The notes below the pieces were generated by a model. The model worked only from the letters and a program-made list of their open reading frames with translations, searched no databases and was not told where the DNA came from. DNA of 7,640 nt from IMG/VR virus record IMGVR_UViG_2778261354_000005; one strand, given 5' to 3'. Position 1 is the first letter of the stretch. Every line of letters starts with the position of its first letter. Of this stretch, positions 2,738 to 7,004 are shown piece after piece. Position numbers and translations under genes: made by a program. The DNA comes from a virus. Taxonomy: Duplodnaviria; Heunggongvirae; Uroviricota; Caudoviricetes.

Positions 2738-3733
2738 TCACCCCCTGAATCCTTCCGGGATCTGGCTGTAGTCCACGTTGTCGTAACTGGCTTTGAAGTA
2801 CGGGTCCTCGCGTCTGGCTGCAGATACCGCAGGAACTTCCCAGGATTCTTCGAAATGACGATCCGGACCAAAGAACGTCGACGCCTGCTTCACGAACTGG
2901 GTACCGGTATTTCCAGAGACACGCACCCAGGCGGCATAGCGTTTCACACCGTCGAGCATGGTTTCGGGTGTCACACCTTCCCTGATTCGGGCTTTCCAGG
3001 CTTTAAAAGCGGCGGATTTTGAATTACCACCAGCACGTTTGGGATATTCCTGCCAGGCCTGTTCAAATTCCGGTGAATATTCCTGTCTGGCAGAACGCGC
3101 TGGTGCAGACGCGTCAGCGGATGCGCCAATAGTGTTTTTAGTCTCCGTTGTAATCTCTGTAGTAATCTCTGTAGTAATCTCTGTATTTGTATCAACATTC
3201 GGCGTATCCCCTGTTCCGTTATGACGTCGGGGGGTGTTCCGTTTTAACGTAATAGCTGTATCGCTGATTGCATTATTGCTGTTACTTTCTGGCGAAACAG
3301 AAGAAGGTGTGGTGATGGCCGCAATTGCCTGTGGGTTGATCCCGACAAACAAAATATTGCTGCATTTCACCCCATCGAGCATTTCCACCGTGCGTAAATC
3401 CAGAGTAATAAACCCTGCATCGCGCAGACGCTTCAGCGCATCTGCGGTTTCCCTTTTCCCGAAACCAAACTGCTCAGCAAACGCCTGGTAGCTTCTTTGC
3501 AGTTTGTCGCCCTGAAAACGCTTGCGATATCCCAGCAACGCTCCGGTGTGCTCATCCCTGACCTCTGTCGGGCGGTACCAGTAAACGATCTCTGAAAGCA
3601 GAGCGATAGCCGTCGCATCCGGACGCCCACTGGGTAGTCTAATATATTTCCACCAGGTCGCAGGTGTAACATTGCCGGAAATATTAATTTGACCAATAGC
3701 CATAACTTCCGGTGTGGGGGCGTAACGGCTCAT
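2738..3733 (-). CDS. Putative phage replication initiation protein (O-like / replisome organizer)
   Basis: 331 aa. Assigned by position (after the immunity module, before the nin-like genes) and domain layout: an N-terminal putative DNA-binding region, a low-complexity linker containing the TEIT repeat, and a C-terminal domain. ATG at 3733 is preceded by AAGGAGGT. The exact family is not identified. Confidence 0.55.
   Translation of the reverse strand: MSRYAPTPEVMAIGQINISGNVTPATWWKYIRLPSGRPDATAIALLSEIVYWYRPTEVRDEHTGALLGYRKRFQGDKLQRSYQAFAEQFGFGKRETADALKRLRDAGFITLDLRTVEMLDGVKCSNILFVGINPQAIAAITTPSSVSPESNSNNAISDTAITLKRNTPRRHNGTGDTPNVDTNTEITTEITTEITTETKNTIGASADASAPARSARQEYSPEFEQAWQEYPKRAGGNSKSAAFKAWKARIREGVTPETMLDGVKRYAAWVRVSGNTGTQFVKQASTFFGPDRHFEESWEVPAVSAARREDPYFKASYDNVDYSQIPEGFRG
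3139..3186. repeat. Tandem 12-bp direct repeats (taatctctgtag x3 plus a degenerate fourth copy) inside the replication gene; candidate iterons
   Basis: Seen: 3151-3162, 3163-3174 and 3175-3186 are identical or 11/12, with a degenerate copy at 3139-3150. They encode TEITTEITTEIT in the linker. A 9-mer tgttccgtt also recurs at 3212-3220 and 3235-3243. Confidence 0.6.
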
Positions 3734-4029: not shown

Positions 4030-4250
4030 GCCACACCTCCCAGACGCTTAAACATTTTTCCGGAGCAAAAGGCTATAAGCGGCATACTGACGCGGTAATT
4101 ACGGCCCAGCGGTTCACAAACCACCTTCTGACATTCACGGTCAACCAGGCTAACACGTAGAACATGCCCAGCAGGCGTGGTGTACCACTGACCCGGACGA
4201 GGACAACGGAAAGTATGATTGGTAAACCGTTTGAAAATATTCCGGATCAT
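4026..4250 (-). CDS. Hypothetical small protein, 74 aa, 4 Cys
   Basis: ATG at 4248-4250 is preceded by AAGGGGG. ATGA overlap with the upstream ORF stop. No family recognised. Confidence 0.5.
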   Translation of the reverse strand: MIRNIFKRFTNHTFRCPRPGQWYTTPAGHVLRVSLVDRECQKVVCEPLGRNYRVSMPLIAFCSGKMFKRLGGVA

Positions 4251-5407
4251 TTGCGCCCCCTTACCTCTGAAGGGTTCAGCGACAAATTTATGAGACAGGC
4301 CAGCGCCGAAGCATCATTAATATAGTCATATAAGCTAACAGCCAGCGGAGATTCGGCTTTTGCCAACATAGGATAAAGCTGCTGCAGCCAGACCTGATGA
4401 ATTGATGAAATGTAGGAACAGAGAACGCTGGCGTTATGTGCAACGTCGCTCGGTACAGCGGGCTTTGAAAGCTGTTTCTCCATCTGGTTAAAGGCATTTA
4501 TGTATGCCTCTTTGAACCGGGCAGCACGTTTACCCGTGAAACCCATAGCAAGAAACGCAAAACCGTCTCGTGTGATTTGATAGCAAGGGAGCTTGCGTGT
4601 ACCACCGTTCGGTTGATTTACCGAAATCGATGTCTCCGCAAAATTGCGGGCACAAAACTCTGGGGAACAATCCAGAGTGCGGATCTTTTTCAGCACATCG
4701 TCGTGACGCTTGGAGAAGAAGTTGGCAACAGCCAAAGAAGTGGTAACGGCCTGGCCGTTGTCAATGGTGATTTCAGGTTGAGTGAGGGCTGGGATCGTAG
4801 CCATGATGGCAGCCTCCGTTGACAGTGAAAAACTTCCACCACCGGAAACGCCAATTTCACTGGTGGTGAACTGGACGGGGTTGGCGTAACCGGCGTCAAC
4901 GGAGACCGGCGCACCTTTCGGTGCCCCCGCCCAGCCCACCATAATCTGGATGTGAGCAAATGCGGACGATAAAAAAGACGCTGGCGCGTCATACATCGCC
5001 GTTGACAATTTCAGGACGCCAATCCCGGCACCCGCTTTATAAGGTGCCTGAGCAGTGTAACGTCCCGGAATTGCAGAATCAATATGCTGGTGGTCCTTCA
5101 CACTCAACAAAATCACGCCTGAATTTCCACAAAGGACTAAAGCACTCATGCGGGTAGTCTTTGCGAAGATAGATAACGCGCTGTGTTTCTGGCTCCCAAC
5201 GAATAACATGGACATAAAGCCCTCTTCCGTCACGAAACCAGCGGTTAAGTTCCTGCACAACTCGCCCCCCACAGTCAGGTAAAGTTCTCTGTGGTTACTT
5301 ACAGCCAGGTGATTTGGTAATCTGCATTCATGCCGTAACAACAGGTGTTCAGCGACGCTGACCACCAGCTGTTGCGACAAACGGTTATTTGCCGTTAAAC
5401 TATTCAT
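4247..5407 (-). CDS. Rha-family phage regulatory protein; Rha domain in the C-terminal 185 aa, with an in-frame 201-codon N-terminal extension of unknown function
   Basis: Residues about 212-310 match the Rha pattern (VTTSLAVANFFSKRHDDVLKKIR…YQITRDGFAFLAMGFTGKRAARFKEAYINAFNQME). An internal ATG at 4802-4804 (MATIPALTQPEITIDNGQAVTTS…) has GGAGG 8 nt upstream and would give a canonical 185-aa Rha. The frame nevertheless stays open for 201 codons upstream, to an ATG at 5407 that overlaps the CII-like stop (ATGA). Confidence 0.6.
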   Translation of the reverse strand: MNSLTANNRLSQQLVVSVAEHLLLRHECRLPNHLAVSNHRELYLTVGGELCRNLTAGFVTEEGFMSMLFVGSQKHSALSIFAKTTRMSALVLCGNSGVILLSVKDHQHIDSAIPGRYTAQAPYKAGAGIGVLKLSTAMYDAPASFLSSAFAHIQIMVGWAGAPKGAPVSVDAGYANPVQFTTSEIGVSGGGSFSLSTEAAIMATIPALTQPEITIDNGQAVTTSLAVANFFSKRHDDVLKKIRTLDCSPEFCARNFAETSISVNQPNGGTRKLPCYQITRDGFAFLAMGFTGKRAARFKEAYINAFNQMEKQLSKPAVPSDVAHNASVLCSYISSIHQVWLQQLYPMLAKAESPLAVSLYDYINDASALACLINLSLNPSEVRGRK

Positions 5408-5961
5408 GCGTTAGTTTCTCCACAACCAGAAGCAATCGACGCCACGACGCCCGGAGCTGCACACTCGCGGGCGTTACTATTTTCTGGAGCGCAGAAGATT
5501 TTGTAGACCAGTGCTGCATGCTCCTGGAGCTTCGAAATTGAAAGATACAGTTCGTCGTTAATTGCTGTCTTCTCATGCGGTTCCACTACACCGTCTTCGA
5601 TTGCTGAACGAATCTGTTTTGAATAACTGCCGATCTGTTCAATGACTTCCAGTAAACGCTGGTTAATATCGGCATTGTCCACATCCTCGACGTCAGGAAG
5701 AGACACAAAGACGCCATTTGCAGACTGCGCCACAGCGTCAGCAATGAAGTGAGTGCCACCAGCACGTTGTAAAATCATTGCCCATCCCAGCGGGAAAATC
5801 TGATCGCCATCGGCACGAAGGCGGTTAAATAATGCGTTCTCTGTTACATCCAGCCACTCAGCAGCTTCAGCGTAACCCTCCGGCAACGCCGCGATAGTTT
5901 TTCTGACAGCTTTCACGTACCACTCAGGCTGTTTTTCCACTTTCCAGTTATGATTACCCAC
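5404..5961 (-). CDS. CII-like early regulatory protein (tentatively the larger phage-186 CII type)
   Basis: 185 aa. GTG start at 5959-5961 has AGGAGG 6 nt upstream and overlaps the cro-like 3' end by 8 nt. The call rests mainly on position directly after cro; family membership is not verified. Confidence 0.5.
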   Translation of the reverse strand: MGNHNWKVEKQPEWYVKAVRKTIAALPEGYAEAAEWLDVTENALFNRLRADGDQIFPLGWAMILQRAGGTHFIADAVAQSANGVFVSLPDVEDVDNADINQRLLEVIEQIGSYSKQIRSAIEDGVVEPHEKTAINDELYLSISKLQEHAALVYKIFCAPENSNARECAAPGVVASIASGCGETNA

Positions 5962-6214
5962 GGCTTACCTCCTGTTCCTGTGGTTTAAACCCATTCTGGT
6001 TTTGGCTAGATTGAAAACGTGCCGGATAAAGAATCTGCATTTCGCTGATTTCACCCTTAAAAAAATTGGCCAGACGTTCTGCAAGATCGATAGATGGAAT
6101 TTGTTCCAGTCTTTCAATACGACTCAGCGTCGCTGGATTGACCTGAACGCCAGCAGCAACATGCTGCAAAGTAAATCCGTGCGTCTTACGCACATTCCGT
6201 AATGGTGATTGCAT
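5954..6214 (-). CDS. cro: Cro-like HTH (XRE-family) regulator
   Basis: 86 aa with an HTH signature (GFTLQHVAAGVQVNPATLSRIE). Transcribed divergently from the repressor gene. ATG at 6212-6214 is preceded by GGAGG. Confidence 0.8.
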   Translation of the reverse strand: MQSPLRNVRKTHGFTLQHVAAGVQVNPATLSRIERLEQIPSIDLAERLANFFKGEISEMQILYPARFQSSQNQNGFKPQEQEVSRG

Positions 6215-6311: not shown

Positions 6312-7004
6312 ATGAACATAGGAAACCGAGTCAGACAACTTCGCCAGGCGAAGAACATGAAAATCGCCGATCTCGCTGAAGCAATAGGAGTGGATGCGGC
6401 GAATATCTCACGCCTGGAAACAGGTAAGCAGAAACAATTCACTGAACAAGCCCTGAGTAATATTGCCAGGAGCTTAGGTGTTGATATTGCTGATCTCTTT
6501 ACCTCAGACGTCAAAAGTAATACTGTATTTAAAAACAGTATTAGTGAGGATGTTGCGCAGGTGAAGGATGTATTCCGTATTGAAATGCTGGATGTCAGTG
6601 CCAGTGCGGGAAATGGCCTTATCCAGGGCGGTGATGTCATTGATGTGATTCATGCCATTGAATACAGAACTGATAATGCTGTATCGATGTTTGGCGGACG
6701 GCCAGCCAATCACATTAAAGTTATCAACGTTCGTGGGGACAGTATGTGTCCAACCATTGAGCCAGGAGATCTCATCTTCGTTGATGTCAGTATCAATCAG
6801 TTTGATGGAGATGGTATCTATGTATTTGGTTTTGATGATAAAATTTATGTCAAACGACTGCAAATGATACCTGACAAACTACTGGTGATTTCTGATAACC
6901 AGATTTACCGTGAATGGGGAATTACCAGCGAAAATGAACACCGGTTTATGGTCTTTGGAAAGGTCTTAATCAGCCAGTCACAAACCCTTAAGCGACACAA
7001 TTAA
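6312..7004 (+). CDS. cI: CI-like prophage repressor, HTH-XRE + S24 (LexA-like) peptidase domain
   Basis: 230 aa. N-terminal HTH (RVRQLRQAKNMKIADLAEAIGVDAANISRLETGK) and C-terminal S24 motifs (VRGDSMCPTIEPGDLIFVD with the catalytic Ser, and KIYVKRLQ with the Lys). Stop TAA at 7002-7004. Confidence 0.9.
   Translation: MNIGNRVRQLRQAKNMKIADLAEAIGVDAANISRLETGKQKQFTEQALSNIARSLGVDIADLFTSDVKSNTVFKNSISEDVAQVKDVFRIEMLDVSASAGNGLIQGGDVIDVIHAIEYRTDNAVSMFGGRPANHIKVINVRGDSMCPTIEPGDLIFVDVSINQFDGDGIYVFGFDDKIYVKRLQMIPDKLLVISDNQIYREWGITSENEHRFMVFGKVLISQSQTLKRHN

Follow-up and report, generated by a model that had tools for sequence, protein, structure and literature searches.

Phage lambda, P22 (gene 18) and SPP1 (gene 38) share an origin layout that lies inside the replication-initiator gene itself, in which the coding sequence of the N-terminal DNA-binding domain is followed by direct repeats spaced ~20 to 24 bp apart, then by a segment richer in adenine and thymine (AT), and finally by the coding sequence of the C-terminal domain. 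Iterons of the lambda type are ~18 bp long at a spacing of 20 to 24 bp; lambda carries four of them, followed by ACACAAAAGACACTATTACAAAAGAAAAAAG and so on, and the corresponding P22 site is annotated as rep_origin. In lambda, the AT-rich tract is required for unwinding, and the O protein binds the single-stranded DNA of that tract (PMC7466680). Here, we describe a similar layout in a 7,640-nucleotide stretch of DNA (the window; IMG/VR record IMGVR_UViG_2778261354_000005), a segment of a lambdoid Escherichia coli prophage whose initiator gene contains a tandem array of 12-mers with the core CAGAGAnTAC. Coordinates throughout are those of the window, the initiator lies on its minus strand, and "sense" refers to the sense of the initiator gene. 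We put at about even the chance that the 12-mers are a sequence-specific origin-opening element beside iterons of the TGTTCCGTT type in a lambda-style in-gene origin. To judge from its sequence, the region from 3137 to 3295 is very probably the origin of the prophage.

The window follows the lambda layout in that its repeats (amino acids ~146 to 199) fall within the linker-coding part of the gene, and an A+T-rich segment lies immediately downstream of the iteron candidates. At the spot equivalent to the array, lambda, P22 and SPP1 gene 38 each have a segment that is rich in AT and repetitive within itself. Short repeats of the ACAAAAGACA type occur in this AT-rich region in both lambda and P22 despite their different iterons (loci L161, 520-575, and L323, 2920-2965), and that of lambda includes TCAGAGAATTCT (9 of 12 positions identical to the unit) and AAAAGATTAT, both of which resemble decayed unit copies. 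Lambda O, P22 gp18 and SPP1 G38P nevertheless lack the exact motif, and what follows the iterons in the window is, unlike in these three phages, a defined motif of 10 to 12 nucleotides (nt) that is constant across phyla rather than a generic A+T tract. A further difference from the lambda-type loci is that no helicase-loader or helicase gene lies downstream in the window.

A first-pass annotation of the window, made from the letters alone, had described three to four head-to-tail 12-bp copies at 3139-3186, and this description was borne out. Tandem Repeats Finder reports a repeat of period 12 at 3142-3185 (3.7 copies, 93% matches, score 74), and a search with the pattern TAATCTCTGTAG yields exact copies at 3151-3162 and 3163-3174, a copy with one mismatch at 3175-3186, and a copy with three mismatches at 3139-3150. 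Within the unit, C2 to A7 and T9 to C11 form an invariant core and positions 1, 8 and 12 are variable; successive cores are spaced 10 to 12 nt apart, which is about one helical turn. The array is in frame in the initiator open reading frame (ORF) and encodes TN-TEIT-TEIT-TEIT-TETK (amino acids 182 to 199, the TEIT units starting at amino acid 184), and decaying unit copies flank it. An AlphaFold2 model built with 32 homologues shows two confident domains joined by a segment with a predicted local distance difference test (pLDDT) score of ~30, so the repeats sit in a linker predicted to be disordered, and their placing in the linker-coding part by the first-pass annotation is supported; indels among the 32 homologues are confined to this stretch. 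An antisense ORF running across the array (2958-3224, plus strand) would encode a hydrophobic VVISVVISVVIS stretch and is probably a by-product of the repeat.

The same annotation had proposed comparing the number of units across related prophages. Among 80 viral contigs selected by N-domain identity alone, exact units number two in 66, three in 11, four in one, one in one, and apparently none in a single contig. In complete E. coli genomes, a 301-bp region around the array comes in three lengths, of which the 301-bp allele has three TEIT units, as in the window, and the 289- and 283-bp alleles have two each. Copy number varies freely, at least from 1 to 4, among near-identical prophages.

Upstream of the array in the sense direction lies a second set of repeats. 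The first-pass annotation had pointed to further short direct repeats 23 bp apart, and these are indeed present: TGTTCCGTTATGACGT (3212-3227) and TGTTCCGTTTTAACGT (3235-3250) are identical at 14 of 16 positions, their starts are 23 bp apart, and two matches of this type are observed where 0.21 would be expected by chance. In the full 23-bp register, the window has two strong copies, one that matches at 8 of 10 positions, and two weak ones (Table 1), while relatives have 4 to 6 clear copies at 22 to 23 bp. The weak copy that abuts the array (3188-3197) may correspond, by alignment, to the last iteron of relatives, "...T(N/Y)". Homologous repeats that code for TLKRNTP, with a period of 22 to 23 bp, are kept in relatives with the same N-domain. 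In nearly all of 23 loci that represent several initiator families, a repeat peculiar to the family, with a period of 22 to 23 bp (3 to 6 copies), ends just before the 12-mers, and the array always lies directly 3' of the iterons. Repeats of the TGTTCCGTT type, which occupy a 23-bp register at ~3188-3295 in the window, are family specific, have a period of about two helical turns, and lie beside the putative unwinding region. They behave as iterons and are our candidates for the true iterons of this origin.

In the first-pass annotation it was the 12-mers that were taken for origin iterons, that is, for the duplex sites by which the initiator N-domain recognizes its own origin. Such a role would suit tandem direct repeats that sit in the linker of an initiator gene beside other origin-like repeats, that are restricted to one initiator superfamily (see below), and whose cores recur every 10 to 12 bp, a spacing compatible with head-to-tail duplex binding. 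The identical 12-mer, however, follows at least eight N-domain families, each with its own repeats of 22- to 23-bp period. The Shiga toxin (Stx) phage Stx2_14040 (Stx2a; locus L001), for example, has palindromic repeats of the GGTTTCCC type at 23-bp spacing directly upstream of a degenerate array (TENT-TEIT-SENT-TESK) and combines a window-type C-domain with an N-domain in which BLASTP finds no similarity to that of the window. E. coli RM11911 (locus L005) has six repeats of the CATTTTGACC type at 23 bp, then TEIT-TEIT-TENK, and its initiator joins a third type of N-domain to a lambda-O-like C-domain. The 12-mer sequence does not co-vary with the DNA-binding N-domain, and because the same 12-mer stands behind dissimilar N-domains, each with its own repeats, it cannot give the origin its specificity. 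The lambda-type pattern of ~18-bp repeats at 20- to 24-bp spacing is seen in the TGTTCCGTT repeats instead, and the number of 12-mers differs even among near-identical prophages. We therefore regard an iteron role for the 12-mers as quite unlikely. Of the lambda-like arrangement that had been suggested, the layout of an origin inside the initiator gene, as in lambda, P22 and SPP1, is supported, and the casting of the 12-mers as its iterons is not.

The distribution of the motif is far broader than that of any one phage lineage. Scanning IMG/VR with the codon-degenerate pattern ACNGARATHACNACNGARATHAC returned 122 matches in ~58 different peptide contexts; 105 are exactly ACAGAGATTACTACAGAGATTAC and 10 differ by one synonymous change (115 of 122 together). 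In 596 Gb of GTDB contigs (one genome per species), we count 34 copies of the exact 23-mer, against ~0.03 expected by our own estimate, and this recurrence is the best demonstration that the repeats exceed chance. About 30 of the 34 sites lie mid-gene in initiator-like ORFs. Hosts of the 23-mer include Yersinia, Serratia, Xenorhabdus, Pantoea, Marinomonas and Legionellales, as do Bacillus, Lysinibacillus, Staphylococcus, Macrococcus, Clostridium (a locus of 22% guanine plus cytosine [GC]), Lachnospiraceae, Selenomonadaceae, Natroniella and Thermoanaerobacter, and further Thermosynechococcus, "Ca. Amarolinea" and Brocadiaceae. Taken by host group, 12-mer phages are found in Enterobacteria, Burkholderia, Acinetobacter, Bacillus, Staphylococcus, Clostridia, cyanobacteria, Chloroflexi and Planctomycetes. 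Named phages with the motif include Bacillus phages BtCS33, phiCM3, phIS3501 and PM1, Staphylococcus phage 37, Erwinia phage PEp14, Burkholderia phage DC1 and Synechococcus phage Ssp-JY37, and many Acinetobacter and Klebsiella phages carry it too. In the named phages, the motif is always within a gene of the "replication initiation / O-like / DnaD-like" kind, and many motif-bearing phage initiators have DnaD-like (PF07261) C-domains. In the searchable literature, which leaves subscription-only papers outside its reach, we found no relevant description of the 12-mer motif or of TEITTEIT, and no experimental data for any motif-carrying phage.

Four exact matches lie outside initiators, namely, in the tail of a cyanobacterial DnaK (L128), in an archaeal surface protein (L135), in a giant-virus ORF (L011), and at a Bacillus intergenic site (L136), and we set them aside as unrelated or unexplained. 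In L128 (the C terminus of a Nostocales DnaK) and L135, the 23-mer is read in another frame, giving RDY-type repeats, and the copy in L011, a giant-virus metagenome-assembled genome, is in the same alternative frame; these three are probably independent tandem repeats. The L136 site (4040-4075; chromosome of Bacillus sp. FJAT-29814) has three CAGAGATTAC cores, 11 and 12 nt apart from start to start, in apparently noncoding DNA flanked by a GntR-like regulator and an unrelated ORF, and no phage genes are seen nearby. A separate oddity concerns "Xanthomonas phage SU1" (OR842880; L404), the initiator gene of which has 32% GC and is nearly identical to Staphylococcus phage initiators. Its taxonomy is given as Rockefellervirus, and the Xanthomonas host label looks inconsistent.

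Codon usage within the array indicates that selection acts on the DNA. We sampled one group of initiators, family A, by N-domain alone (52 unique proteins with 48 to 58% identity to the Bacillus infantis reference N-domain) and found the array in 48 of 50 complete ORFs. Among 26 distinct family-A arrays, found by peptide pattern, the codon ACA is used in 53 of 53 cases (background frequency, 0.39), GAG in 45 of 45 (0.32), ATT in 31 of 33 (0.47), and ACT in 50 of 53 (0.29). Array variation falls instead on positions that change the amino acid, at position 8 (I/N/T/S) and position 4 (E/K). Fixed wobble positions combined with variable replacement positions are the reverse of what selection on the protein would leave. 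Wobble identity at residues conserved in the adjacent N-domain is 38% (saturated), and the motif-bearing genes must therefore have diverged anciently. The canonical codons are kept in genes of 58 to 63% GC and in the 22% GC locus alike, loci with the exact 23-mer span 22 to 55% GC, and the array is found in genes of up to 63% GC.

Nor is the reading frame a constant. Thermoanaerobacter has the same DNA after its iterons, in a frame that gives DYYRDYYRDY. In a second family ascertained by N-domain (71 proteins, every one of which carries the motif), the cores lie 11 and 10 nt (or twice 11 nt) apart in 13 of 49 distinct arrays, so that a single motif is translated in two or three frames; one such array is translated TETT-QRLP-ETT or RDY-TETT-QRLP, with the core CAGAGAnTAC intact. 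These data bear directly on the alternative that the first-pass annotation had itself offered, in which a plain in-frame tandem duplication has produced a slippage-prone, flexible TEIT linker with no role at the DNA level. Copy-number polymorphism of 1 to 4 units, a place in a disordered linker, and decaying copies on the flanks all accord with slippage. A neutral microsatellite, however, should not constrain its synonymous sites while tolerating I/N/T/S and E/K replacements, should not keep its DNA at least as well as its peptide, and should not present the same DNA in other frames or the exact 23-mer across phyla at such different GC contents. We consider this alternative highly improbable. 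Conservation of the array exceeds what composition and coding account for, given its fixed wobble positions and frame-independent core, as would be the case for a DNA-unwinding element (DUE).

The array is also restricted to one kind of initiator. Of 146 ORFs that bear the motif, 145 have at their N terminus a helix that ends in YW, followed by a winged helix, the exception being a truncated ORF, and 38 nonredundant N-domains align on this architecture; the N-domain families seem to be distant members of a single superfamily. Where E. coli initiators carry an HTH_36 (PF13730) N-domain, the C-domain and the DnaC-like and DnaB-like genes downstream are the same, the array is missing, and three copies of GAACCAGTCA stand in its place. 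The array thus appears to accompany the N-domain superfamily rather than the C-domain, loader or host. Because it tracks that superfamily, recognition by a conserved part of the initiator is favoured over recognition by a host factor, and the initiator may still touch the 12-mers. The HTH_36 initiators (29 proteins; E. coli O121 RM8352, L006, 2595-2650) show TGACTGGTTC three times at a spacing of 13 to 17 bp in the post-iteron position, which suggests that each initiator class has its own "second repeat."

Homology among these genes is broken at the array. Many genes of Stx phages and of O157, O145 and O103 prophages match the window only as far as 3185, and the E. coli prophage RM11911 shares just the 32-nt array with it. 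The window-type C-domain also occurs behind other N-domains. The initiator seems to be a three-part mosaic of N-domain plus iterons, array, and C-domain plus tail, and the motif explains the precise recombination of initiator genes at the array. Homology that ends exactly at the array edge, together with the constant location of the array on the sense strand of a transcribed gene, could also point to a nucleic-acid function other than origin opening, for example, a module-exchange junction or an mRNA signal, the latter perhaps a pause in translation or transcription that gives the nascent N-domain time to bind the iterons in cis. Between 2900 and 3500, however, a search of Rfam at a permissive threshold returned only chance-level matches, and a scan for sigma-70 promoters found none. 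Breakpoints are expected at any conserved island and would be a consequence of conservation, not its cause; selection for evolvability would not fix wobble bases across phyla; and the fixed abutment of the array to the iterons points to the origin. On balance, we think a function of this other kind unlikely, if less so than an iteron role for the 12-mers.

Composition singles out the same place only in part. The lowest-GC 40-bp segment of the initiator gene is 3160-3199 (27.5% GC), and in 80 contexts the AT excess is restricted to the array and the 20 nt on either side. We rejected an AT-rich DUE defined by composition alone, since the array is not distinct in hosts of 64% AT. By-eye comparison of the motif with the DnaA box, IHF sites, boxA, sigma-70 hexamers, primase trinucleotides and 16S rRNA gave nothing convincing, and the oriC 13-mers share ATCTCT with it in a fit that was likewise not convincing.

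Direct observation covers the anatomy of the array, its distribution, its nucleotide-level constraint, its adjacency to the iterons, and its restriction to one initiator superfamily; with these in hand, we propose the following scheme for an origin-opening element. The N-terminal winged-helix domain would bind the TGTTCCGTT-type iterons (~3188-3295) as duplex DNA. The 12-mers would be a separate cis-acting element, under selection at the nucleotide level and common to one cross-phylum initiator superfamily. The iteron-bound initiator would open the duplex at the 12-mers and pass the DNA to the helicase, and a conserved surface of the initiator would recognize the 12-mers, perhaps in single-stranded form. 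Tandem direct repeats of 12 to 13 nt that flank candidate initiator sites, as found here, are also what DUE-type elements display.

Several points weigh against origin opening. In hosts of low GC (64% AT), the array is barely AT-richer than its surroundings, and with so little contrast there, easy melting alone cannot explain it. The exact number of units is not critical, as copies range from 1 to 4 and apparently fall to 0 in 1 of 80 close relatives. Comparison of two N-domain families with hhalign gives a weak match (E = 8e-4, probability 24%). The mosaic breakpoints at the array edge would also be predicted by a recombination junction, and since transcription always runs through the element in the sense direction, a role at the RNA level is possible. 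Finally, we infer origin activity, unwinding at the array, binding, and the reader of the array.

Temperate-phage DNA is otherwise mosaic and fast evolving, and a wobble-fixed motif of 10 to 12 nt that extends from E. coli to the phages of Staphylococcus, Clostridia, cyanobacteria and Chloroflexi is unusual for it. We tentatively suggest, with slightly less than even confidence, that CAGAGAnTAC repeats, about one helical turn apart, are a pan-bacterial, sequence-specific origin element read by a conserved surface of an unnamed "YW" superfamily of phage winged-helix initiators, a phage counterpart of oriC 13-mers or DnaA-trios that did not change as iterons, N-domain specificity, C-domains and hosts diverged. 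If the 12-mers are an opening or loading element, a one-line sequence signature would locate origins in thousands of prophages. They would also offer a way into the melting of DNA by winged-helix initiators, a process not yet settled even for lambda, and a common target or tool, e.g., for portable ori parts or for broad inhibition of prophage induction, including that of some Stx phages.

The early-right operon of the window runs on the minus strand and includes the initiator (Table 1), the gene for which is 99.9% identical to that of E. coli T309.Ta3. Its identification as a replication initiator, made in the first pass, was upheld: it matches phrog_270 (E = 2e-77), a family annotated "replication initiation protein"; over its C-terminal half there is a match to phrog_1701 (E = 2e-37), annotated "DnaD-like helicase loader"; and NCBI labels its homologues "replication protein." The protein falls in no Pfam or NCBIfam family, and a sequence search of the PDB came back empty; as neither the N- nor the C-domain has a Pfam match, it is not a member of the lambda O Pfam family. 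Foldseek finds only weak matches for the N-domain, all of them winged-helix proteins (TFE/TFIIE, MarR, CodY and DnaD-N; E ≥ 0.01), and N-domain homologues with 32 to 67% identity occur in Chloroflexi, Bacilli, Clostridia and Enterobacteria. The C-terminal helical domain is presumed to be a module that recruits the helicase or its loader.

Table 1. Features of the window, with the basis or remark for each
Feature	Position	Strand	Basis or remark
cI-like repressor	6312-7004	+	
Cro-like	5954-6214	-	
CII-like	5404-5961	-	
Ash/Rha protein	4247-5407	-	
Two small ORFs			Between Ash/Rha protein and initiator in listed operon order
Replication initiator, 331 amino acids	2738-3733	-	ORF; phrog_270; NCBI homologue names
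N-terminal winged-helix domain, amino acids 1-144, with "LSEIVYWYRP" helix	3302-3733	-	AlphaFold2 pLDDT 80-96
Disordered interdomain linker, amino acids 145-216, holds proposed origin	3086-3301	-	pLDDT ~30
Weaker iteron-like copy CTGTTACTTT, 8/10 to CTGTTCCGTT	3279-3288	-	Two periods upstream of iteron 1; third member of the 10-mer family, offset -104
Degenerate copy CTGTATCGCT, 7/10, in 23-bp register	3256-3265	-	Read from sequence; tentative, weak
Iteron candidate 1, plus strand gTGTTCCGTTTTAACGT	3234-3250	-	Strong copy
Iteron candidate 2, plus strand cTGTTCCGTTATGACGT, sense ACGTCATAACGGAACAg	3211-3227	-	Strong copy
Degenerate copy TTGTATCAAC in 23-bp register	3188-3197	-	Abuts 12-mer array; sequence and alignment to relatives; tentative, weak
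12-mer array, core CAGAGAnTAC, proposed origin-opening element	3137-3186	-	
Sense unit ACAGAGATTACT	3173-3184	-	
Sense unit ACAGAGATTACT	3161-3172	-	
Sense unit ACAGAGATTACA	3149-3160	-	
Sense unit ACGGAGACTAAA	3137-3148	-	Degenerate
C-terminal helical domain, amino acids 217-302	2828-3085	-	AlphaFold2 pLDDT 85-94; phrog_1701, phrog_26426, phrog_3729
Dam methylase, LexA-DNA-binding-domain protein, RusA			Listed after initiator in operon

Several further observations concern the genes around the array. The initiator is followed by a 30-amino-acid ORF (2643-2735) and a Dam methylase gene (1990-2688), with no helicase-loader or helicase genes, and in close relatives (loci L002 to L004) it is followed by helicase-loader and helicase genes; the arrangement in the window resembles an "initiator-solo" module. 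Over its last ~25 codons, the initiator gene matches a CPS-53/yfdN-adjacent gene type that is common in E. coli. The 386-amino-acid ORF at 4247-5407 (minus strand) fuses an Ash domain (amino acids 117 to 212) to a Rha domain (amino acids 222 to 311), which are separate overlapping genes in loci L002 and L003. The cI-like repressor gene contains a 9-bp tandem repeat of its own, TGATGTCAT, in 3.3 copies at 6632-6661, that codes for GDVIDVIHAI.

Beyond the lambda-type phages, three kinds of origin element invite comparison. Like the iterons of theta plasmids and phages, the TGTTCCGTT-type repeats have a period of 22 to 23 bp and are family specific; the 12-mers differ from them in showing no co-variation with the DNA-binding domain. 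The DnaA-trios and DnaD recognition element (DRE; 5'-CTACTATTACTTCTACTA-3'; PMC10201434) of Bacillus subtilis oriC are a strand-specific, single-stranded DNA element beside duplex initiator sites. The DRE and the sense strand of the 12-mer have in common ATTACT and CTAC triplets and one TnnT per unit. Only 2 of 4 triplets per unit fit, no DnaA boxes lie near the array, and the resemblance, which is our own reading and statistically weak, is a weak lead. A further parallel is with the 13-mers in the DUEs of oriC, RK2 oriV and F ori2, which are likewise short direct repeats of 12 to 13 nt arranged in tandem and adjoining initiator sites, and in which, for oriC and iteron plasmids, sequence matters and not composition alone. 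Winged-helix Rep proteins of plasmids bind both iterons and, sequence specifically, one strand of the DUE 13-mers, and origin activity is lost when these 13-mers are altered (PMC4081077). In both oriC and plasmids, however, the 13-mers are replicon specific and noncoding, whereas the phage 12-mer is a putative unwinding element that is translated as part of the initiator and is common to the phages of many phyla.

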